Of a stretch of DNA of 38,557 nt, positions 14,392 through 38,557 are shown piece by piece. This DNA is from a virus (Duplodnaviria; Heunggongvirae; Uroviricota; Caudoviricetes). How positions within the stretch are numbered: position 1 is the stretch's first letter; every line of letters begins with the position of its first letter. The notes under the pieces are model-generated. The model ran no database searches and was not told where the DNA came from. It saw only the letters and a list, made by a program, of their open reading frames with translations. The DNA lies in the IMG/VR virus record IMGVR_UViG_2925891887_000008; one strand, given 5' to 3'. The position numbers and the translations under genes are program-made.

Positions 14392-14737
14392 TCTCTGCTC
14401 CTGTTGATACTGAAAGGGACACAGGCACACCGTTATTCCGCCGCCCGGTCAGCTCCACCACCATTGAACCGTCAAAATTGCTGTTAATAGTGATGGAATC
14501 CAGCGTCAGCCGTGGCTCCCAGCGACTCAGTGCCACATACACAGCCGACATAACCTGCAGGCGTAACGCCGGATTTTGTGGCTGATCTATCAGTGCCGAC
14601 AGCAGGGAACCATATTCCCGACGGGCAATGCGGCTACCCTGCGGCGTCAGCAGAATGTCCCGCACCGACTGGCGCAGATGGTCAATATCAGTAATGGCTT
14701 TACCGTTGGTATTGTTCATCCCGCTATAAAGCGTCAT
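14378..14737 (-). CDS. W: Baseplate protein W (gp25-like)
   Basis: 119 aa, syntenic between V and J. Confidence 0.8.
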   Translation of the reverse strand: MTLYSGMNNTNGKAITDIDHLRQSVRDILLTPQGSRIARREYGSLLSALIDQPQNPALRLQVMSAVYVALSRWEPRLTLDSITINSNFDGSMVVELTGRRNNGVPVSLSVSTGAENGSD

Positions 14738-15312
14738 ACCGGGCCTCCGGTTGTGTCGCCGCCTTTCAGGACGCCAGTATGCTGATGCGCATCAACCACG
14801 ATCCCGTTAGAACTCATTGCTCCGCCGCCCTGGGTAACGCCACCATTGATCACCACTTCGCTGTTAATGCGCGTGCGGTCAGCCTCCAGTACAAACTCAC
14901 TGGTTTTCATGGTGATGTTGTCAGCGGCCTCAATGACCATTGATTTGATGCCCCTGACATACCAGCGCCCGGTGGCGGGTTCATATTCAAACCAGCCACC
15001 GTCCGGGTATTCCGTCACGTTGCCGTCCTCAGAGCCTGAAGGTGGCGGAAACTGGTTTGAGTAGACCGCAGGCAGGGCAAACGCGGTTTCCAGATTGCCG
15101 CCAAGGCTGAACAGCACAACCTGCTCACCCACAGACGGTTTCCACCAGGTGCGCGATTTGCCCGCGCGCAGTGTCAGCCAGTTAATCCAGTTGGTTTCGA
15201 GGTCGCCAGTTTTCACCCGACACAGCCAGTTTGCCCTGTCCACTTCGGTGACTACACCTGTGCGGATCAGGTTGGTGATAAGGCGCATGATTTCGGTTAA
15301 TTGTGCGTTCAT
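14734..15312 (-). CDS. V: Baseplate assembly/spike protein V
   Basis: 192 aa. It shares the RTW...WxPSVGEQV core with P2 gpV (SRTWWKPSVGEQVVLFSLGGNLETAFALPAVYS). Confidence 0.85.
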   Translation of the reverse strand: MNAQLTEIMRLITNLIRTGVVTEVDRANWLCRVKTGDLETNWINWLTLRAGKSRTWWKPSVGEQVVLFSLGGNLETAFALPAVYSNQFPPPSGSEDGNVTEYPDGGWFEYEPATGRWYVRGIKSMVIEAADNITMKTSEFVLEADRTRINSEVVINGGVTQGGGAMSSNGIVVDAHQHTGVLKGGDTTGGPV

Positions 15313-16147
15313 AGGGAAAGGTTGCCATCAATAGCAAGCAGTAGACAGCCTTTGTAATTGTATTAGACATAGAACAAATGCCTTTCAATGGTCTGCGTTA
15401 GAGCATTAATACGTTGCAAAAGGTCGAATGACGTTGCGCAAGTTAAGAAGTTCAATGCTCTTAAAAAAGCACTTGAAAGCAACGCCTTTAATTATTAAAA
15501 GCCAATTAATTTAGGCGGTTACTATGTTATCTTTGACACAAAAGATGTTTATTGACAATATATAAGTTCAATCTAACAAGGAGAAAAATTATGCCAAATG
15601 AAAATCTTGATATTGACTCAAGGACTACCGAGCAATTATACGAATGGTATTTGCAAGGAAATTTGATAGTCAATAGACGTTATCAAAGGAAACTTGTATG
15701 GTCTCTAGAAGAAAAGACTTCTTTAATATCTTCTATGCTGCAACAATATCCTATTCCGTTATTATTATTTGTTACCATCAATGAACAAAGAGAAATATTG
15801 GATGGAATGCAAAGATTAGAAGCAATTATGAGCTTCATCGAACAGAGATTTTCATTAGATGGACAATATTTTGATTTGGACTCTATAGCTTTAACAAAAC
15901 AACTTAAAGATAATGGAACTTTAATTCAGAAAGAACCAATCCTTTCCCGTGATTCTTCAGCAATTATTGCACGTTATCGATTTGCAATATCAGAATATAG
16001 CTCCACAAATGAAAATATTGACGAAGTATTCAGACGAATAAACTCAAACGGGAAGATTTTATCCAAACAAGAATTACGTAGTGCAGGAACAGGGTGATGC
16101 TGCCAACTTACTGATTTAGTGTATGATGGTGTTTTTGAGGTGCTCCA

Positions 16148-16423
16148 GTGGCTTCTGTTTCTATCAGCTGTCCCTCCTGTTCAGCTACTGACGGGGTGGT
16201 GCGTAACGGCAAAAGCACCGCCGGACATCAGCGCTATCTCTGCTCTCACTGCCGTAAAACATGGCAACTGCAGTTCACTTACACCGCTTCTCAACCCGGT
16301 ACGCACCAGAAAATCATTGATATGGCCATGAATGGCGTTGGATGCCGGGCAACCGCCCGCATTATGGGCGTTGGCCTCAACACGATTTTCCGCCATTTAA
16401 AAAACTCAGGCCGCAGTCGGTAA
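16148..16423 (+). CDS. insA: IS1 InsA
   Basis: 91 aa, [32 protein letters not shown]..., recognised as InsA. Confidence 0.95.
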
Positions 16424-16845
16424 CCTCGCGCATACAGCCGGGCAGTGACGTCATCGTCTGCGCGGAAATGGACGAACAGTGGGGATACGTCGGGGCTAAA
16501 TCGCGCCAGCGCTGGCTGTTTTACGCGTATGACAGGCTCCGGAAGACGGTTGTTGCGCACGTATTCGGTGAACGCACTATGGCGACACTGGGGCGTCTTA
16601 TGAGCCTGCTGTCACCCTTTGACGTGGTGATATGGATGACGGATGGCTGGCCGCTGTATGAATCCCGCCTGAAGGGAAAGCTGCACGTAATCAGCAAGCG
16701 ATATACGCAGCGAATTGAGCGGCATAACCTGAATCTGAGGCAGCACCTGGCACGGCTGGGACGGAAGTCGCTGTCGTTCTCAAAATCGGTGGAGCTGCAT
16801 GACAAAGTCATCGGGCATTATCTGAACATAAAACACTATCAATAA
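16342..16845 (+). CDS. insB: IS1 InsB frame (the transposase is made as InsAB' by a -1 frameshift)
   Basis: 167-aa InsB ORF. The A6C slippery run at 16399-16405 lies in the insA/insB overlap. Confidence 0.95.
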
Positions 16846-18218
16846 GTTGGAGTCATTACCCAGGAACAGTTAGTAACTTCTCTGAACTGGTCAGATCGAT
16901 ATCAACATCGATCAGAGGTGATACTAGCCATTCTGACATTATGAATCTCCAGCAAATGCACAAAATTTCAATCAGTAACGATAGATTGGAGTACGGGGTA
17001 AATATCGATAACCACTTTTATATAAAACATCATATTTTAACAAGACGAAGTATTCGTGATTCTGATGACGAGGAATTGATAGCCAATATCCTTGCATATA
17101 TCAGTCTAGAAGAAAAACCCACATCTGGGTCAACTTCTCTCGACACATTCTATGGTCAAGGAAACTCCTCTCATGCTCATGGTGTCAGACAGCAATTAGA
17201 GTCTTTCATTCAAACCAATAACGCTGCCACTATTAAGCAGAATTTCATAGCTGTATATGAATTAATTACAAGCCTATATGACGGAAAAAATGATACTTTT
17301 AGAAGCCATATTTTAGGGGAGGATAATTCATCTCAAGAATGCCCTCGTTATTATCAAGCTGTGTTTTTGTCTATTTATGAACTTCTTTTCAACCAAAATA
17401 TGCAATTAATTGATAAAGAAGGTTTATTCTCGCAATTAAAAAACACTGGCAATACCATAATTATGGTTACCGATGGTGGCCGCTGGGCTGCAAGCACTCG
17501 TGAAAAAAGTGTTAATGATCTTGTTGCATTAATAAGTCGTTACTTCCAACCTGCTCCTCAAAAGTATGTGAATCATGCTTGGGTAACTGAAATTCGCAAT
17601 CTATTAACAAATTCTAGAACTGAACAACCAAGTTATGATTTCAAACAAGGGTTCTTTAATTTATCAGGTAAAAATGAATTTGATGATGAATGTTTAAAAG
17701 GAATATTACAAACTTGCGTAGCAATAAATAATATTGGAAAAAGCGCAAAAGGCTATATTTTAGTTGGTATTGCCGAAAATAAATTAACCGCAGATAGAAT
17801 TCAACATTTATATGGAGTAAATTCAATTGAGTTCAATGGGTTCTATATAAACGGAATTGATCATGAAGCAATGTTAGTCTCTGGTAGCATTGATGATTAC
17901 TTTATGTTAATAAAACAAAAAATACAAGGATACAATTTCACTGAAACTCTAAAACAGCAGATACTTAAGAATATTGAGTTTTGCTCTTACAATGGCTTAC
18001 ACATACTCAAGATAACTATTCAGAGCACAGGTCAAATTTGCGACTTTGAGAATATGTTTTATATCAGACAAGGCTCATCGACTGATCCAGTTACGGATAC
18101 ACAAAAAATCTCAGCTCTATTTAACTCTTACATGAACAGCTAATCAATCGCCATCTCCACTGGAGCTGGCTTATGGATAAAAACAAAAGACGAGAGGGCT
18201 ATTTAAACCTCCTCGTCT

Positions 18219-18665
18219 TTATTTTGATAGCTCCTCCTTTATGCTCATAATAATATTTTCTTCTGTTTTATAAGATAAGCCCAATAAAGTACGTTGCGGA
18301 TATTTCGCGATTAAACCTTTTTTATTTACCCGATCACGCAGGCCGTAATGGTGAACACGGGCAATACGCTGTACCATACCTTCAAACTGCACGCTGGCAG
18401 AATCGGCGCTGGCGGCAGTTTTCAGGTATTTTGTGGTGCGAAGCTTTGTAAACATCTGACGTTTGATGCGCCCCTTTTTACTACGTGCTGTTACCCTTCG
18501 CGGTTCATAGCTGCTGCCATCAGGATTACGCTGCATCCTGATGTTCTGCTGCTGTGTCCGGCGCAGTTCCTGCGCCAGCTGGCGCATCATGCGGCTTCTT
18601 GCGGCTGGCTCCAGATTCGCCAGCAAGGCACTCAGCCAGTCGTCCACCTTCTGCAATTCAGCCAC
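18219..18665 (-). CDS. S: Tail completion protein S
   Basis: 148 aa with a GTG start, syntenic after R (P2 gpS is about 150 aa). Confidence 0.8.
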   Translation of the reverse strand: MAELQKVDDWLSALLANLEPAARSRMMRQLAQELRRTQQQNIRMQRNPDGSSYEPRRVTARSKKGRIKRQMFTKLRTTKYLKTAASADSASVQFEGMVQRIARVHHYGLRDRVNKKGLIAKYPQRTLLGLSYKTEENIIMSIKEELSK

Positions 18666-19110: not shown

Positions 19111-19342
19111 TAATCATGTCCACTTTGTCTGCACAGACCGCCCAGGCGGCCTCCGTTTCATCCAGCAATGCGTTCAGATCACCGTTAGTGCGCGGCGCTG
19201 CCTGCTCCAGCCGACACGGCGTCACTCGCGGACAACCACTGACGGTAAGCTGCACCTCCGGTGAGTGCCGGACGTTCCCGCAGCCGGATAATGTCAGCAG
19301 GCAAAGGAGTATCAGCCCAGCGGCGTAAATCCTCGTTCTCAC
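19052..19342 (-). CDS. lysC: Outer-membrane spanin (LysC/Rz1-like lipoprotein)
   Basis: 96 aa with a lipobox signal, MRTRIYAAGLILLCLLTLSGC. It starts inside the i-spanin gene in another frame, the typical overlapped spanin architecture. Confidence 0.7.
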   Translation of the reverse strand: MRTRIYAAGLILLCLLTLSGCGNVRHSPEVQLTVSGCPRVTPCRLEQAAPRTNGDLNALLDETEAAWAVCADKVDMIIACQERNSEQTTVPAPRPQ

Positions 19343-19613
19343 GTTTCAGTTCCTCGATCCGGCGTTGTCGTTGTCTCAGCAGTGCGCTGGTCTGTTCTGC
19401 TTCGGCGTAGAGCCGCGCCTGCTCCCGGTTGTTGGTTTCAGCCAGAATGGACAGACCGATCAGCTGGCTGTTTTTCTTCGTCAGTTCTTGCGCTTTACTT
19501 TTCAGCGCCGCGCGCTGCGTTTCGATGGTGTGGCTGGCGCTGTTAAGCCGCCACGACTGCCAGCCCAGCGCAACGAGTGCCAGCGCCACCACTACTGCCA
19601 GCGCACGCGTCAT
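19185..19613 (-). CDS. lysB: Inner-membrane spanin (LysB/Rz-like)
   Basis: 142 aa with an N-terminal transmembrane helix (ALAVVVALALVALGW) followed by a coiled-coil-like charged region. It lies directly downstream of the endolysin. Confidence 0.7.
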   Translation of the reverse strand: MTRALAVVVALALVALGWQSWRLNSASHTIETQRAALKSKAQELTKKNSQLIGLSILAETNNREQARLYAEAEQTSALLRQRQRRIEELKRENEDLRRWADTPLPADIIRLRERPALTGGAAYRQWLSASDAVSAGAGSAAH

Positions 19614-20125
19614 AGTCCAGCTCCTTTAAGGCACCAGGCCATCTCCCGCGCACGGCGGTTATCCAGCCCCTGATTAAACACACCTTTCACATAAACCCAG
19701 CGCGGCAACTGTCGGCACGCATCCGCCCAGCGCCGCTGATTGAGTAACTTCACCAGCGTGGAACTGCAGGCATTGCCCGTCCCCACGTTGAAGGCAAACG
19801 ACACCACCGCGTCATACACCTTTTGTGGCGGCTGTTGCTTCACACATCTTTCCAGCGCCCGCTCCACACGTAGCACGTTTGAGATCAGCCCTTCTGCTGC
19901 CTGTCGTTCCGTAATGGTTTTGCCGGGAATGACGCCCGATGTATTACCAATGCCGTCGGTCCAGACACCCGCGCTGCACTGATACGGCTGCAGACGACAG
20001 CCTTCGTAATCGGCAATCAGTTTCAGCCCCTCCACGGAGGTGTGAAGCTGCTGAAAACCCGGCAGCGTGGCAGCAATAGCCAGCACGGCTCCGACAAGGC
20101 AGCGTTTAACGATTGATGGATTCAT
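19610..20125 (-). CDS. Endolysin, GH24 T4-lysozyme-like with a probable N-terminal signal-anchor-release (SAR) segment
   Basis: From ATG 20125 (GGAGG upstream) the ORF is 171 aa. A hydrophobic Gly/Ala-rich N-terminus (CLVGAVLAIAATLPGF) is followed by the E..D..T-type motif EGLKLIADYEGCRLQPYQCSAGVWTDGIGNT. Confidence 0.75.
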   Translation of the reverse strand: MNPSIVKRCLVGAVLAIAATLPGFQQLHTSVEGLKLIADYEGCRLQPYQCSAGVWTDGIGNTSGVIPGKTITERQAAEGLISNVLRVERALERCVKQQPPQKVYDAVVSFAFNVGTGNACSSTLVKLLNQRRWADACRQLPRWVYVKGVFNQGLDNRRAREMAWCLKGAGL

Positions 20126-20321
20126 AGTCCTCCCGCGAGATCTGCCCGTCACGCAGAAGCTGGTAGGCTTTGTGTTTGTAGTACCAGTTGATAGCCAGCA
20201 TCAGCACACCAATCATCAGGCCGCCCAGCGTTGAGGCATCCTTGATGGACAAATCGCCCAGCCAGGCCAGCACGACGGCGATGCAATACGTGATAAAGGC
20301 GCTGATTCGCTCAAGCGTCAT
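20106..20321 (-). CDS. Holin (two transmembrane helices, pinholin-like)
   Basis: 71 aa with two hydrophobic helices and a charged C-terminus, immediately upstream of and overlapping the endolysin. Confidence 0.7.
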   Translation of the reverse strand: MTLERISAFITYCIAVVLAWLGDLSIKDASTLGGLMIGVLMLAINWYYKHKAYQLLRDGQISREDYESINR

Positions 20322-26710: not shown

Positions 26711-27337
26711 ATGGATATCGAAAAGCTAAAAGAATTTTACGAAAAACTTTACTTTCAGGAAACGGAAAATAAAGACAAGATTTACAACAGAATTCAAATG
26801 ATATTTGGATTAATAGTAATCGACGCAACTATCGTAACATATCTGCTTAAAAACACATCCTTTGAAAATCATGCATTCTTTGCCTGCATTGTTATAGGAC
26901 TTTCATTATTATCAGTGTTTTTTATTTATAAAGCCTGCATGCTCCTAAAAAAAGCATTTTGGGGTAATGAATTCAAATACATTCCCAAACCTAAGGAAAT
27001 AGACGAATACTACAATGGCCTCATTAAATATGAAGCAGACTATAAAAAATATTGTGATAATAATGGGCTTACCTATAATGGTGAGCACTCATCAAGTAAA
27101 AAGTTCAATGAATACTTAGTAAAACAACTAGTAGAGTGTACTAGTTGGAATACTAAGAAAAATGAAATGAGAACAAGTCAAATATATCGAGCCACTAAAT
27201 TCTTTTTTTTCTCACTAATTCCATTAGTGATAGCGGTTGGCTTTTTTTTAGCGATGGATCTCGATTCAGCCTCGCCAAGGAAGACTAATGAGCCACATTT
27301 CATTATTATACCTGTAGATAATATCAGGAGATTATGA
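26711..27337 (+). CDS. Hypothetical membrane protein with three predicted transmembrane helices (cargo)
   Basis: 208-aa ORF with GGAG 7 nt before the ATG. It is AT-rich, with hydrophobic helices at about aa 28-46, 55-73 and 164-183 and a Lys/Tyr/Asn-rich soluble middle. I recognise no family. Confidence 0.7.
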   Translation: MDIEKLKEFYEKLYFQETENKDKIYNRIQMIFGLIVIDATIVTYLLKNTSFENHAFFACIVIGLSLLSVFFIYKACMLLKKAFWGNEFKYIPKPKEIDEYYNGLIKYEADYKKYCDNNGLTYNGEHSSSKKFNEYLVKQLVECTSWNTKKNEMRTSQIYRATKFFFFSLIPLVIAVGFFLAMDLDSASPRKTNEPHFIIIPVDNIRRL

Positions 27338-28139: not shown

Positions 28140-28565
28140 ATGAAAAGCTTTTACGTATTAATTTTAATTCTGGTTGCAAGCTTTGTTAGCGTCCCAGTTC
28201 AGGCGGTAACAGCTAAAAACTATGAGAAAGGAACTAAAGCTCAACAGAAATCAATATCTTACCTTTCATGTGCATTCTATGGCAGTAGCACACAATTAGA
28301 TCCTAGCTACACGGAGCAAGTACCTACAGCCGATATCAAGATATTACAGAAAGCAGCTTACCACGCTTACAACGATGCGCTCTCATACTTTGGCTATGAG
28401 GAACCAGATCACGAACAACGCATAATTGATTATGCTGAATTTGTGGCGTCGCAAGAAGCTGTGTTATGGGATAAGCCGGGAATGAATGGAAAGCAGGTAA
28501 CACTAATTGCTCGTTCTCTCTACAATGAGAGTAACTGTAACTTGTTACTGGACTCAATTAAGTAG
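28140..28565 (+). CDS. Hypothetical exported protein (cargo)
   Basis: 141 aa with GAGG upstream. It has a Sec-type signal peptide, MKSFYVLILILVASFVSVPVQA/VT, and is AT-rich. I recognise no family. Confidence 0.65.
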   Translation: MKSFYVLILILVASFVSVPVQAVTAKNYEKGTKAQQKSISYLSCAFYGSSTQLDPSYTEQVPTADIKILQKAAYHAYNDALSYFGYEEPDHEQRIIDYAEFVASQEAVLWDKPGMNGKQVTLIARSLYNESNCNLLLDSIK

Positions 28566-35282: not shown

Positions 35283-35433
35283 TTTTTGCTTTTATATCTG
35301 CGCCTAATATAACAATGAGCCGCAGGCTAACCGCAAAAGTCACATACTCACATAGCAAAAAATAGCCAACTTCATTATGGCTTCAGTGAGATGTATGGTC
35401 GCAAGATTTCATACATTGACACTGGTTATACAT

Positions 35434-36749
35434 GGGTCTTCCCTTGTTGTGGTGGCTGAAGGCATGATAATGGTGTATTTAATCGCCAGAGGTCACCGCC
35501 ATGGACGAAAAGTCCCTCTACGCTCATATTCTCAACCTGTCCGATCCGTGGCAGGTAAAGTCCCTTTCTCTCGATGAAAATGCCGGTTCTGTTACTGTCA
35601 CTATTGAGATCGCTGAAAACACCCGGCTAGCCTGTCCGACCTGCGGTAAATCCTGTTCTGTTCACGATCACCGTCATCGTAAATGGCGCCATCTTGATAC
35701 CTGCCAGTTCACCACTATTGTTGAAGCCGATGTTCCACGAATTATGTGTCCGGAGCATGGCTGCCTGACGTTGCCTGTTCCGTGGGCTGGCCCCGGAAGC
35801 CGGTATACGTTGCTATTCGAATCGTTCGTTCTCTCATGGCTGAAAATCAGCACCGTTGATGCTGTCAGGAAGCAACTTAAGCTCAGTTGGAATGCGGTTG
35901 ACGGCATTATGACCCGGGCAGTTAAGCGAGGTCTTGCCCGGATAAAAAAGCCATTATCCGCCCGTCATATGAATGTGGATGAGGTCGCCTTTAAAAAAGG
36001 ACATCGTTACATAACGGTGATCTCCGATCGCGATGGTCGGGCGCTGGCCTTAACGGATGATCGCGGCACAGAGAGTCTTGCCGGCTATCTTCGCACGCTC
36101 ACTGATGGGCAGTTGCTGGCTATCAAAACGCTCTCAATGGACATGAACGCGGGCTATATAAGAGCAGCGCGTATCCACTTACCCAGTGCGGTTGAGAAAA
36201 TCGCCTTTGACCGCTTCCATGTGGCGAAGCAACTGGGCGAGGTAGTTGATAAAACCCGTCAGAATGAACATCCGCACCTCCCTGTTGAAAGCCGACACCA
36301 GGCAAAAGGAACCCGCTTCCTGTGGCAGTACAGCGATAAGTGGATGACCGAATCCCGGCAGGAAAAGCTGATGTGGCTGCGTGCACAGATGAAGCTGACG
36401 AGCCAGTGCTGGGCGCTGAAAGAGCTGGCAAAGGATATCTGGAACAGGCCATGGAGCGAGGAAAGACGGAGTGACTGGCAGAGATGGTTGGCGCTGGCGG
36501 CTAACAGTGACGTTCCCATGATGAAAAATGCCGCGAAAACGATAGGAAAAAGGCTGTACGGGATCCTGAATGCGATGCGACACAGTGTCTCAAACGGAAA
36601 TGCGGAGGCACTTAACAGCAAGATCAGGCTGCTGAGGATAAAAGCCAGGGGATACCGAAACCGGGAGCGCTTTAAACTGGGGGTGATGTTCCACTACGGA
36701 AAGCTGAATATGGCGTTCTGAGCCTTCCCACCATGATCGGGGAAGACCC
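35434..36749 (+). mobile_element. ISL3-family insertion sequence (1316 bp)
   Basis: Imperfect terminal inverted repeats: GGGTCTTCCC...TGGTGG at 35434, and its reverse complement ending at 36749. The element is flanked by the 8-bp direct duplication TTATACAT (35426-35433 and 36750-36757). Confidence 0.85.
35501..36721 (+). CDS. ISL3-family transposase
   Basis: 406 aa with an N-terminal zinc-finger region (CPTCGK...H..H) and a DDE-type core. Overall it resembles ISL3-family transposases. Confidence 0.8.
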   Translation: MDEKSLYAHILNLSDPWQVKSLSLDENAGSVTVTIEIAENTRLACPTCGKSCSVHDHRHRKWRHLDTCQFTTIVEADVPRIMCPEHGCLTLPVPWAGPGSRYTLLFESFVLSWLKISTVDAVRKQLKLSWNAVDGIMTRAVKRGLARIKKPLSARHMNVDEVAFKKGHRYITVISDRDGRALALTDDRGTESLAGYLRTLTDGQLLAIKTLSMDMNAGYIRAARIHLPSAVEKIAFDRFHVAKQLGEVVDKTRQNEHPHLPVESRHQAKGTRFLWQYSDKWMTESRQEKLMWLRAQMKLTSQCWALKELAKDIWNRPWSEERRSDWQRWLALAANSDVPMMKNAAKTIGKRLYGILNAMRHSVSNGNAEALNSKIRLLRIKARGYRNRERFKLGVMFHYGKLNMAF

Positions 36750-36792
36750 TTATACATACAGTAAAAATGCTCTCTATTGGAGGGCATTTTTT

Positions 36793-37824
36793 ATGGCAGT
36801 ACGAAAACTCACCACAGGAAAATGGCTTTGCGAATGTTACCCCGCCGGACGTAGTGGGCGTCGTGTGCGTAAACAATTCGCCACCAAAGGCGAAGCACTG
36901 GCTTTTGAGCGTCACACGATGGAAGAAACCGAAGCAAAGCCCTGGCTGGGCGAATCAGTAGATCGTCGAACCCTGAAAGACGTGGTTGAGCTATGGTTCA
37001 AACTACATGGTAAATCTCTGACTGCTGGGCAGCATGTCTATGACAAATTGCTGCTGATGGTTGACGCTCTGGGCAATCCCCTTGCAACCGATCTCACATC
37101 TAAAATGTTTGCCCATTATCGAGATAAACGACTGACAGGTGAGATCTACTTCAGCGAGAAATGGAAGAAAGGGGCCAGCCCGGTCACCATTAACCTGGAG
37201 CAAAGCTATCTAAGTAGTGTTTTTAGCGAACTATCCCGCCTGGGCGAATGGTCGTATCCAAACCCACTGGAGAACATGCGAAAATTCACCATCGCAGAAA
37301 AAGAGATGGCATGGCTTACCCATGAGCAGATTGTTGAACTGCTGGATGATTGCAAACGTCAGGACCCAATTCTGGCACTGGTAGTCAAGATATGCTTAAG
37401 CACAGGCGCACGCTGGCGAGAAGCAATAAACCTAACCCGATCACAGGTGACCAAATACCGAATTACCTTTGTAAGAACGAAGGGGAAGAAAAACAGAAGC
37501 ATCCCTATCAGTAAAGAGCTTTATGAAGAGATCATGGCGCTTGATGGGTTCAATTTCTTCACAGACTGCTATTTTCAATTTTTATCCGTGATGGAAAAAA
37601 CGTCTATCGTGCTCCCTCGCGGTCAACTTACACACGTTCTGCGTCATACGTTTGCGGCGCATTTCATGATGTCGGGTGGAAACATCCTTGCTTTGCAAAA
37701 AATCCTCGGACATCACGACATAAAAATGACTATGCGTTATGCTCATCTATCACCTGATCACTTAGAGACAGCTCTTCGTTTCAATCCACTAGCAACTTTG
37801 GATGTTACTAAATCAGATTCTTAA
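36793..37824 (+). CDS. int: Tyrosine integrase (P2/186 type)
   Basis: ATG 36793 (MAVRKLTTGKWLCECYP...) gives 343 aa. Catalytic signature: ARWREAINL, HVLRHTFA and MRYAHL. The track start at 36733 lies inside the IS end. Confidence 0.9.
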   Translation: MAVRKLTTGKWLCECYPAGRSGRRVRKQFATKGEALAFERHTMEETEAKPWLGESVDRRTLKDVVELWFKLHGKSLTAGQHVYDKLLLMVDALGNPLATDLTSKMFAHYRDKRLTGEIYFSEKWKKGASPVTINLEQSYLSSVFSELSRLGEWSYPNPLENMRKFTIAEKEMAWLTHEQIVELLDDCKRQDPILALVVKICLSTGARWREAINLTRSQVTKYRITFVRTKGKKNRSIPISKELYEEIMALDGFNFFTDCYFQFLSVMEKTSIVLPRGQLTHVLRHTFAAHFMMSGGNILALQKILGHHDIKMTMRYAHLSPDHLETALRFNPLATLDVTKSDS

Positions 37825-37834
37825 AGGTTCAAGC

Positions 37835-38557
37835 ATGGTTAAGTTTTTGTTTCAATTCCCAATATTCGACTTCTCCTTAACATTTGATATTATCGAGACG
37901 TTAATCACTCATAGCGAATCATCAATCGCTAAGGGTATAGCAGAATATAAAGACAAAGGACCTGAAGAATATATAATTGAAATATCTCCGGAAGATGGTG
38001 TATATCAGTCAATTGATCATTACATGGGACTCACCAGCTCATCGCTAGATCTCGATGAAATGTTTTTAGAATACTACCCAAGTATTATCCGCAGGTCAGT
38101 ATTCTTAACTATATTCGGAATTTTTGAGCACGAAATAGAAAAATTCTGTAACAACTTTGCTAATAGACATCATTCTCCTATAAATGTTTCAGATCTCAAA
38201 GGAAGTGGATTTGAGAGGAGCCATCTATTTATCAAAAAAATGATAGGGATGAAGTCAACATCCCACTATTCGAATATCAAAAAAATAACAAAATTAAGAA
38301 ACAGTTGTGCGCATAATGATGCAAAATACTTAGAAAACGATGGGCAAAATATTAAAAGCATTATTGAACTTATAGAAAAATATCCTGATTTTTTTAAAAA
38401 AGATGGAAAACAGGTCCTATTTATGGAGGGCTCGTTAAGCATGATCTTGAACTCATTCAAAGAGTATCTTTCTGATGTTGAAAGAGCCTTAGATGAATTC
38501 GAAAAACAAAGCACTAGTGGCGACAAAGTGGCGGCAGCGGTTGGCATTACCCCGTAA
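37835..38557 (+). CDS. Hypothetical protein with an Rx4H (HEPN-like) motif; cargo between int and att
   Basis: About 240 aa from ATG 37835 (the track start at 37802 overlaps int). It is AT-rich and helical-looking. LRNSCAHN (38297-38314 encodes R-N-S-C-A-H) fits the HEPN Rx4-6H ribonuclease motif. The last 13 codons span the att repeat and the DNA beyond it. Confidence 0.6.
   Translation: MVKFLFQFPIFDFSLTFDIIETLITHSESSIAKGIAEYKDKGPEEYIIEISPEDGVYQSIDHYMGLTSSSLDLDEMFLEYYPSIIRRSVFLTIFGIFEHEIEKFCNNFANRHHSPINVSDLKGSGFERSHLFIKKMIGMKSTSHYSNIKKITKLRNSCAHNDAKYLENDGQNIKSIIELIEKYPDFFKKDGKQVLFMEGSLSMILNSFKEYLSDVERALDEFEKQSTSGDKVAAAVGITP
38518..38539. repeat. Prophage attachment-site core, int-proximal copy
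   Basis: TGGCGACAAAGTGGCGGCAGCG matches 3281-3302 at 21 of 22 positions. Confidence 0.6.

Follow-up and report, generated by a model that had tools for sequence, protein, structure and literature searches.

The V-S slot and its interrupted cargo gene

The window analysed here is the whole 38,557-nucleotide stretch of IMG/VR record IMGVR_UViG_2925891887_000008, a virus of the Caudoviricetes. Between the P2 tail genes V and S, it carries a single gene on the plus strand, referred to below as the cargo gene, which is interrupted by an insertion sequence. A sequence-only reading had described an AT-rich gene running opposite to the late operons, and our analysis agreed: the G+C content of the cargo gene is 33%, versus 56-57% in the flanking tail genes, and both V and S lie on the other strand. 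The features of the slot are listed below.

14734-15312, minus strand: tail gene V, on the strand opposite to the cargo gene
15313-15390, minus strand: V-proximal intergenic DNA, kept in every state of the slot (defined from the sequence)
15391-15590, plus strand: AT-rich region upstream of the cargo gene (likewise defined)
15591-16092, plus strand: 5' part of the cargo gene, codons 1-167 and the first base of codon 168
16084-16092: left copy of the 9-bp target-site duplication CAGGAACAG, a perfect direct repeat
16093-16860, plus strand: IS1 (IS1B-like), exactly 768 bp, oriented like the gene that it interrupts
16861-16869: right copy of the 9-bp target-site duplication CAGGAACAG, a perfect direct repeat
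16870-18143, plus strand: 3' part of the cargo gene, the remainder of codon 168 through codon 591 and the stop codon
18186-18225: intrinsic terminator acting in both directions, its hairpin accompanied by a U-tract on each strand
18219-18665, minus strand: tail gene S, on the strand opposite to the cargo gene, where the converging late operon ends

The V-proximal intergenic DNA contains a TGT-N12-ACA dyad at 15359-15376, and the same dyad is found 46-64 nt before the V ATG in both an empty slot (L012) and a PARIS-carrying slot (L010). TGT-N12-ACA is the mark of P2 late promoters, and the dyad here probably serves the V operon as its Ogr-dependent late promoter element. Ahead of the cargo gene are two TTGACA hexamers (15533-15538 and 15552-15557) and a Shine-Dalgarno sequence, GGAG, at 15580-15583, 7 nt from the ATG. 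A consensus promoter scan of 15391-15590 returned no site matching at 9/12 or more positions, and no convincing cargo-gene promoter was located there. The cargo gene and S have the terminator in common, and its hairpin lies within a fold of -27.3 kcal/mol (z = -4.5).

The knock-out of the cargo gene is as clean as had been claimed, with the perfect duplication on both sides of a 768-bp IS1. The element begins with GGTGATGCTGCC... and ends with ...GGAGTCATTACC, its terminal inverted repeats are imperfect, and its plus-strand reading frames are insA (16148-16423) and insB' (16342-16845), so that length, termini, reading frames and 9-bp target duplication are all those of IS1. RefSeq annotates the identical locus as 'IS1-like element IS1B family transposase, programmed frameshift'. 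As found, the 5' reading frame stops at 16097, within IS1 (...SAGTG, then stop), and the longest reading frame left in the 3' part covers 16941-18143 (400 aa). We rejected the idea that IS1 is an assembly artefact peculiar to this DNA, because RefSeq record NZ_CP195467.1 shows the same structure.

An intact allele matches the reconstructed gene

Joining 15591-16092 to 16870-18143 gave 1776 nt in frame, comprising 591 codons and a stop codon. This reconstruction, proposed earlier as exact, proved identical in both DNA and protein to an uninterrupted coding sequence of E. coli CRE10 (L001, 20291-22066; WP_001132405.1), in which the target CAGGAACAG occurs once. On checking related strains for IS1-free alleles, we found the locus in 27 of 5426 complete E. 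coli genomes, uninterrupted in 26 of them; the only carrier with an interrupted copy, 22AR0322 (NZ_CP195467.1), has the same IS1. The intact-allele and IS1-null prophages are 99.9% identical over 35 kb, and the view that the insertion is recent was likewise supported.

Beyond these genomes, tblastn against the deposited phage collection revealed no full-length homologue, only matches to the DUF262 domain at a coverage of 39% or less, and PHROG 26759 matches the 591-aa protein end to end. Homologues from different phyla keep a rigid architecture over the full length, a sign that purifying selection acts on the protein as a whole.

The V-S slot is a variable defence hotspot

The P2-like prophage that carries the gene occupies a site between ybjL and rcdA in E. 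coli. In P2, Orf30 lies between V and S, and the orf30 region has been known since 2007, its variability having been recognised by 2007-2010; the cargo gene sits in this very position, as the sequence-only reading had placed it. For the slot we listed 60 of roughly 1,080 E. coli P2-like prophages, and the counts refer to the 52 sampled prophages that were covered at 97-100% of the query. The slot was empty (68 bp) in 28 of the 52 and held varied cargo in the other 24. Recognised cargo in these sister prophages includes PARIS, SIR2, TIR or AIPR genes, and uncharacterised cargo includes DUF6216, DUF5677, PcfJ, FRG and several hypothetical proteins.

The gene is thus missing at the same position in relatives whose flanking core genes are conserved, which is the pattern of an accessory (moron) slot. 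A core role in tail assembly was rejected because about half of the sampled relatives have nothing in the slot. The V-S slot is a real variable defence hotspot and, like the P2 hotspots old/tin and Z/fun, holds horizontally acquired, AT-rich, non-essential cargo at an operon boundary. The literature that we found on P2-like defence hotspots centres on old/tin, Z/fun and the tail-CI hotspot, and mentions the V-S slot only generically ('within the tail genes').

The cargo protein fuses a DUF262 domain to a Schlafen domain

Profile searches confirmed the N-terminal DUF262 domain that had been recognised by its motifs: DUF262/GmrSD_N (PF03235) matches aa 26-165 (15666-16085, E = 1.7e-17), with the motifs NRRYQRK and DGMQR, the latter coded at 15801-15815. 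The best structural matches of residues ~1-180 are BrxU and SspE. A helical middle region (aa ~181-418) follows, and the Schlafen/AlbA_2 domain (PF04326) occupies aa 419-575 (17622-18092), covering profile positions 1-117 of 118 with a score of 27.5 bits, just over the cut-off of 25.3. The proposed AlbA_2/Schlafen C-terminus was thereby supported. The fusion of both domains in one reading frame was verified in the intact allele, and PF03235 was matched in 38/38 homologues and PF04326 in 35/38. The absence of DUF1524, also proposed earlier, was borne out by a search for PF07510 or another nuclease, which gave no match at E up to 1.

Within the C-terminal domain, 38 homologues with 37-89% identity all keep E419-QPSY-D424-F-K426 unchanged (E419 is coded at 17622-17624, D424 at 17637-17639 and K426 at 17643-17645). 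This motif fits Ex4(E/D)xK, by which the Schlafen catalytic motif has been defined (PMC13056530). By fold, the domain matched SAMD9, SLFN5/11/12/13/14 and 3lmm, and the closest matches were the SAMD9 and SLFN tRNase domains; the SAMD9 domain in question is deposited as a tRNase domain (9o0d). Profile searches against PDB chains yielded only a weak BrxU match at the N-terminus for the whole family and, for the C-terminal domain alone, no Schlafen, with spurious matches to the YtvA STAS domain, GRASP and SUMO. Since PDB sequence profiles find no Schlafen, the Schlafen link rests on Pfam, the motif and the fold comparison. An NCBIfam scan of the 591-aa protein assigned no family. Across homologues, mean pairwise identity was 57% in DUF262, the most conserved part, versus 41% in the Schlafen domain.

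The gene belongs to a published class with a protective member

The earlier view that this domain pairing was not a characterised defence protein did not hold. It is the published class pSlfn7, or DUF262-Slfn, which makes up 1.8% of 5,930 prokaryotic Schlafens (Perez Taboada et al., Nat Microbiol 2026, PMC13056530), and the cargo gene has its defining parts, a PF04326 domain of >100 aa, the Ex4(E/D)xK motif and a fused PF03235 domain. One member, EcoSlfn7 from E. coli UC4224, cut T7 plating about 540-fold and protected against a broad range of phages, most strongly against T7/T3 (PMC13056530). Up to two DUF262-Slfn genes were tested in that study, in which 1/8 constructs failed synthesis, and only one was named as protective; infection-triggered tRNA cleavage was demonstrated there for pSlfn5, not for the DUF262 class (PMC13056530). 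UC4224 was absent from the 27 carriers of our allele and from the 60 best matches to the plasmid allele, and the tested EcoSlfn7 is therefore a different, possibly distant, member.

Proposed function and alternatives

We consider it likely that the cargo gene is an accessory pSlfn7-type defence gene of the P2-like V-S slot, inactivated by IS1, whose product worked as a tRNase under an NTPase switch. The DUF262 NTPase, of ParB/Srx fold, and the helical middle would detect infection, working as a switch or sensor that depends on nucleotide, and would then license the Schlafen/AlbA_2 nuclease, through E419, D424, K426 and probably E500, to cut tRNA. Translation would stop and the burst of a superinfecting phage would fall, to the benefit of lysogen and prophage. 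Here, a recent transposition of IS1 has inactivated the gene, cutting the DUF262 domain off from the remainder of the product. Phage protection is expected by analogy with the homologue EcoSlfn7, for which it is known from the literature; tRNA is a presumed target by comparison with RorSlfn5, SLFN11/13 and SAMD9, and GmrSD, BrxU and SspE suggest that DUF262 is a sensor and depends on NTP; BrxU dissociates when it binds nucleotide. No other part of the protein is as conserved as DUF262, the opposite of the fast-evolving pSlfn5 sensor, so that 'sensor' may be the wrong word and the domain may instead be an enzymatic NTPase core.

The sequence-only reading had pointed towards a modification-dependent (type IV) enzyme like GmrSD, SspE or BrxU, with AlbA_2 replacing DUF1524 as the DNA-binding or DNA-cutting module and with glucosyl-hmC or otherwise modified phage DNA as the target. 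We regard this claim as weak and the explanation as unlikely. The lack of any DUF1524/His-Me nuclease match, the deposition of the matching SAMD9 domain as a tRNase and the closeness to SLFN tRNase folds all speak against it, as does the activity of EcoSlfn7, which is broad in phage range and best on T7/T3, phages without hypermodified bases (PMC13056530). Because the invariant E419-x4-D424-x-K426 matches the Schlafen tRNase site, the effector more probably cuts tRNA than restricts modified DNA in the manner of GmrSD.

More improbable still is a prophage cargo with a non-defence role, such as control of the lysis-lysogeny decision or of host translation under stress, the loss of which to IS1 would be neutral. 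It would accord with the finding that some 30% of prokaryotic Schlafen genes lie away from known defence genes (PMC13056530), and with the paralogue of the cargo gene on IncF plasmids, which is disrupted in most carriers without apparent consequence. However, the PARIS, SIR2 and TIR systems in the slot of sister prophages, the protection of E. coli by a member of the same architecture (PMC13056530) and the purifying selection on the whole protein all argue for defence.

Finally, it is purely speculative, and very improbable, that the 400-aa C-terminal frame, in which the whole Schlafen domain is intact and RefSeq calls a protein, is read from IS1 as a constitutive or differently regulated nuclease freed of DUF262: IS1 has the same orientation, so that read-through is possible, but there is no evident Shine-Dalgarno sequence ahead of ATG 16941 or 16956, and a tRNase without regulation should be toxic. 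The one 9/12 promoter match inside IS1 (16100-16127, plus strand) is not evidence of expression, because its position is at the upstream end of IS1 and matches in the region are no more numerous than in shuffled sequence.

As for the proposed NTPase-switched tRNase, the DUF262 NTPase is known only as the sensor or motor of DNA-cutting type IV enzymes (GmrSD, BrxU, SspE). We tentatively suggest that DUF262 has here been rewired to a tRNA-cutting Schlafen effector and, separately, that the V-S slot is a largely unmined defence hotspot. If so, the cue of infection would be DNA-level or nucleotide-level and the response of the protein translational shut-off, and the DUF6216, DUF5677, PcfJ, FRG and hypothetical cargo would include new systems. 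The intact and IS1-null forms are a natural, sequence-verified allele pair of a pSlfn7-type gene in near-identical P2-like prophages, a convenient start for studying DUF262-Schlafen function at native expression and what DUF262 senses, and the sampled slot is now documented with recognised defence systems and several unknown genes. Neither the allele pair nor the slot content overturns current understanding; earlier work has described the gene class as well as the variable slot, and this is an ordinary, well-explained case.

Comparison with known systems

The best PADLOC matches were Menshen NsnA (aa 9-348, 3e-23) and PD-T4-2_A (aa 10-181, 1e-17), and the similarity comprises DUF262 and part of the helical region, leaving the Schlafen domain uncovered. 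Menshen (NsnABC) and PD-T4-2 (A+B) are multi-gene systems, whereas the cargo gene stands alone beside phage genes V and S. Membership in either was rejected because no partner genes lie beside the cargo gene or are conserved in other genomes; among the neighbours of homologues in Vibrio, Pseudomonas and Nostoc, no conserved partner gene was found.

Like GmrSD, BrxU and SspE, the cargo protein has an N-terminal DUF262 NTPase domain with QR...W and DGxQR motifs, here of the DGQQR type found in the GmrSD family. Unlike GmrSD-family enzymes, it has a Schlafen effector in place of the C-terminal DUF1524 His-Me (HNH-like) DNA nuclease. With the tRNases pSlfn5 (RorSlfn5), human SLFN11/13 and SAMD9, it has in common the nuclease fold and the acidic catalytic motif, and the outcome would be expected to be the same, namely cleavage of the tRNA anticodon arm and translational arrest. 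The regulatory modules differ: pSlfn5 has an Ig-like protein sensor, SLFN11 a helicase and SAMD9 a multi-domain STAND-like protein, whereas that of the cargo protein is a ParB/Srx-fold NTPase more conserved than its nuclease. The nearest likeness, drawn by architecture, is to EcoSlfn7, which has an N-terminal DUF262 domain and a C-terminal PF04326 domain with Ex4(E/D)xK, and is likewise a single gene on mobile DNA of E. coli or other Enterobacterales. The gene described here differs from EcoSlfn7 in being another allele, in lying in the V-S slot of a P2-like prophage and in being broken by IS1.

Interruption of the cargo gene by IS1

The P2-like prophage in the window has its integration site between ybjL and rcdA. 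Its cargo gene, which encodes a DUF262-Schlafen protein, occupies the position of Orf30 in P2, between the tail genes V and S and on the strand opposite to both, with a G+C content of 33% as compared to 56-57% for its neighbors. The P2-like phage literature names the orf30, TO and Z regions as sites of horizontally acquired genes. The features of the locus are as follows.

14734-15312, minus strand: V, baseplate gene, left neighbor of the cargo gene
15359-15376: TGT-N12-ACA dyad, 47-64 nt upstream of the V start
15580-15583, plus strand: GGAG upstream of the cargo gene start
15591, plus strand: ATG start of the cargo gene
16084-16092 and 16861-16869: perfect 9-bp direct repeats, CAGGAACAG, flanking IS1
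16093-16860: IS1, 768 bp, insA and insB' frames on the plus strand, ends GGTGATGCTGCCAACTTACTGAT... and ...GTTGGAGTCATTACC
18186-18225: hairpin with U-tracts on both strands (z = -4.5)
18219-18665, minus strand: S, tail-completion gene, right neighbor of the cargo gene

As present in the window, the cargo gene frame ends at 16097, within IS1. Joining 15591-16092 to 16870-18143 gave 1776 nt, or 591 codons and a stop, and this DNA was identical at every base to the uninterrupted coding sequence of the CRE10 prophage (WP_001132405.1), in which CAGGAACAG is found once, at the insertion point. The sequence-only reading had described an AT-rich gene in the orf30 position, opposite in strand to V and S, knocked out by an IS1 with a perfect 9-bp duplication and recoverable as a 591-aa ORF; these results bear out that description. 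The insertion site lies in codons 165-168, precisely where the Pfam match to DUF262 ends. The split leaves a DUF262 fragment of 168 aa and, without a promoter, an ORF of 400 aa that holds the middle region and the nuclease. Sequence inspection revealed no evident ribosome-binding site before the internal ATGs of the 400-aa ORF, and a consensus promoter scan returned a single 9/12 match within IS1, a chance-level result, at the upstream end of the element (16100-16127). The simplest reading is that the split gene is a null allele.

The cargo locus was present in 27 of 5426 complete E. coli genomes, at 98.7-100% identity. It was uninterrupted in 26 of these, and strain 22AR0322 alone carried the same IS1. 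The CRE10 prophage was 99.9% identical to the window across ~35 kb, the two IS elements excluded. This genome comparison shows that IS1-free alleles exist in related strains and indicates that the insertion is recent, as had been proposed, and limited to one lineage. The tail tube, tail sheath and tail fiber genes of CRE10 (L001, 13447-17588) are annotated as frameshifted or partial, reflecting either a decaying prophage or assembly errors; the cargo gene of CRE10 is intact.

Domain architecture and family

Pfam searches of the 591-aa protein detected GmrSD_N (DUF262) at residues 26-165 (1.7e-17) and SLFN_AlbA_2 at residues 419-575 (27.5 bits; cut-off, 25.3), and did not find DUF1524. In 38 full-length homologues of 37-89% identity, the DUF262 match was present in all 38 and the Schlafen model match in 35. 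Residues N28, R29, Y31, Q32, R33 and K34 (NRRYQRK; R30 is nearly invariant) and D71, G72, Q74 and R75 (DGxQR) were invariant in the DUF262 part, as were E419, D424, K426, E500 and R567 in the Schlafen part. Prokaryotic Schlafen nucleases are defined by the catalytic motif E-x4-D-x-K (Perez Taboada et al., PMC13056530). An AlphaFold2 model built from the family alignment was confident (pLDDT 85.8), and its Foldseek matches included the rat SAMD9 tRNase domain and SLFN13/14. The cargo protein thus has the Schlafen fold and catalytic residues, and the earlier assignment of a DUF262 N-terminus and an AlbA_2/Schlafen C-terminus in place of DUF1524 was correct. The top PADLOC matches, NsnA (residues 9-348) and PD-T4-2_A (residues 10-181), align only with the DUF262 part and the helices after it, and PHROG 26759 (function not assigned) aligns with the protein end to end.

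The family is well delimited: of 1.84 billion representatives, ~250 clusters (50% identity) scored E <= 1e-30, and almost all of them are 580-620 aa long and align end to end. Its members occur in Enterobacterales, Vibrio, Aeromonas, Pseudomonas, Comamonas, Sulfitobacter and many cyanobacteria. In Enterobacter, a homologue of 89% identity likewise occupies the slot between V and S of a P2-like prophage, a Vibrio homologue adjoins an integrase and a resolvase, and the Pseudomonas and Nostoc homologues lie in small islets close to toxin-antitoxin genes. No conserved neighbor gene was found in the Vibrio, Pseudomonas and Nostoc contexts; the neighborhoods of uninterrupted homologues are those of a gene that stands alone.

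The V-S slot as a defense hotspot

We searched E. coli genomes with the slot flanks only (I-J-W-V joined to S-R-lysis-X-L), which matched 1084 records, and sampled 60 of these evenly down the ranking; 52 of the 60 covered 97-100% of the query. The slot was empty in 28 of the 52 prophages, with a V-to-S gap of 68 bp (checked in the empty-slot prophage L012, 2529-2596). The remaining 24 carried cargo of about 0.55-2.2 kb, annotated as AAA ATPase with DUF4435, SIR2, TIR, AIPR, AAA ATPase with HNH, PcfJ, DUF6216 (also in BL21(DE3)), DUF5677, FRG and several hypothetical proteins. PADLOC identified the AAA/DUF4435 pair as AriA/AriB (PARIS) and placed the SIR2 protein with the PDC-S25 and ThsA-like models. 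In the two slots inspected, the PARIS-carrying L010 (2629-4732) and L011 (2627-4147), the cargo was on the plus strand, opposite to the late genes. Because the slot is often empty and otherwise varied in content, the cargo gene is dispensable for the virion; a role as a core P2-like tail-assembly gene is ruled out. The varied cargo, PARIS and SIR2 included, makes the V-S slot a genuine defense hotspot, and several of its genes to which no function is assigned are candidate defense genes. The P2-like phage literature stresses the old/tin, Z/fun and tail-CI hotspots, and mentions the V-S region only in general terms ('within the tail genes', 'downstream of GpL').

The TGT-N12-ACA dyad is also found 46-63 nt upstream of V in relatives with an empty slot or other cargo (L012, about 2574-2591; L010, 2574-2591). 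A TGT-N12-ACA dyad is typical of P2 late promoters, and we take this one to be the likely Ogr-dependent element of the V late promoter; it delimits the exchangeable DNA on the left. At the opposite border, the 3'-terminal part of S differs from one slot state to another, so exchange boundaries fall within flanking homology and not at a fixed site. The strong hairpin at 18186-18225 is predicted to be able to terminate the cargo gene as well as the late operon ending in S. With the dyad on the V side and this two-way hairpin on the S side, the slot is an operon boundary, which explains its tolerance of cargo.

A paralogue on IncFII plasmids

A paralogue 68% identical to the cargo gene lies beside pemIK on IncFII plasmids (L003, 8001-9773). 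It was detected in 802 of 5426 E. coli genomes and was full-length in one place in just 105. Its commonest remnants span nt 1-1283 and nt 1275 onwards (plasmid loci L013, 3001-4311, and L014, 2996-3499), and both adjoin IS1 fragments and IS26/TEM-1/CTX-M resistance DNA (CTX-M-55). The 9-bp overlap of the remnants (nt 1275-1283) is the signature of an IS1 target duplication and, together with the adjoining DNA, indicates an IS1-bounded resistance region inside the paralogue. Other copies are interrupted by ISKpn26, ISVsa5 or IS1. IS1 has therefore struck both paralogues independently. IS1 prefers AT-rich targets, and this preference accounts for the double strike as readily as does selection against the gene.

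Other features of the prophage

The window holds a second insertion sequence, an ISL3-family element of 1316 bp (35434-36749; inverted ends GGGTCTTCCC/GGGAAGACCC), flanked by an 8-bp duplication, TTATACAT (35426-35433 and 36750-36757), and containing a transposase ORF (35501-36721; Pfam DDE_Tnp_ISL3, 1e-55). The CRE10 prophage, 99.9% identical in other respects, does not have it. The element separates int from the CI-repressor operon, 36 bp upstream of the ATG of the integrase gene (36793), a location in which it may impair excision; it may also uncouple int from the repressor operon. The window prophage lacks a 378-bp lysA-like gene (DNZ54_00345 family), which in most of the relatives sampled lies between the lysozyme gene and lysB (window, 19610-20152 and 19185-19613, compared with L010, 6149-6526, L011, 5548-5925, and L012, 3988-4365). 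ORFs with no assigned function are found at 26711-27337 and 28140-28565, in the classical old/tin hotspot between Q, the portal gene, and the replication genes, and at 37802-38557, beyond int (the int-att region). These gave no Pfam match, and a 208-aa ORF among them weakly matched the PADLOC 2TM 'Effector' model (2e-4). They are possibly further defense cargo.

Relation to known Schlafen defense proteins

The pairing of DUF262 with AlbA_2 had been considered uncharacterized in defense, a view that is out of date. In a survey of 5,930 prokaryotic Schlafen proteins with 55 architectures (Perez Taboada et al., bioRxiv 2025; Nat Microbiol 2026, PMC13056530), DUF262 fusions made up 1.8% and were among four architectures picked for tests in E. 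coli. EcoSlfn7, the DUF262-Schlafen protein of E. coli UC4224, lowered the plating of many different phages, most strongly that of T7, which fell about 540-fold (PMC13056530); in the preprint, its effect was strongest on T3 as well (bioRxiv 2025). None of the 27 genomes with the cargo allele is that of UC4224, so EcoSlfn7 is a different member of the class. By analogy with this homologue, the intact cargo protein would be expected to protect against phages.

An alternative, suggested by the modified-DNA analogy of the sequence-only reading, is that the cargo protein restricts modified DNA in the manner of GmrSD. Three points weigh against this: the protein lacks DUF1524, it carries an RNase motif, and the homologue examined in phage assays favors T7/T3. 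In the best-supported model, the DUF262 NTPase and the helical region would form a nucleotide-dependent switch, which would license the Schlafen nuclease to cut tRNA, halting translation and reducing the burst of the phage that enters. GmrSD, BrxU and SspE suggest the NTP-dependent regulatory role, and tRNA is the probable target by likeness to pSlfn5, SLFN11/13 and SAMD9. The mechanism has been resolved for pSlfn5, the Ig-like class, only, in which a phage tail-assembly chaperone triggers cleavage of the tRNA anticodon arm (PMC13056530).

In pSlfn5 the sensor varies, whereas in the DUF262-Schlafen family the reverse holds: mean pairwise identity was 57% for DUF262 (residues 1-180), 43% for the middle region (181-418) and 41% for the Schlafen part (419-591). 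This conservation would fit an enzymatic core responding to a generic cue, such as a nucleic acid or nucleotide state, and not to a phage protein that evolves fast, and such a cue would also fit the broad phage range of EcoSlfn7. Overall, the anatomy and domains first proposed for the cargo gene stand, and the claims of novelty and of a modified-DNA target do not. Its value is practical rather than a conceptual advance, lying in a natural pair of intact and null alleles and a documented hotspot. The cargo gene is a new member of a class already described, is inactivated in this prophage, and lies in a region of P2-like phages known to be variable.
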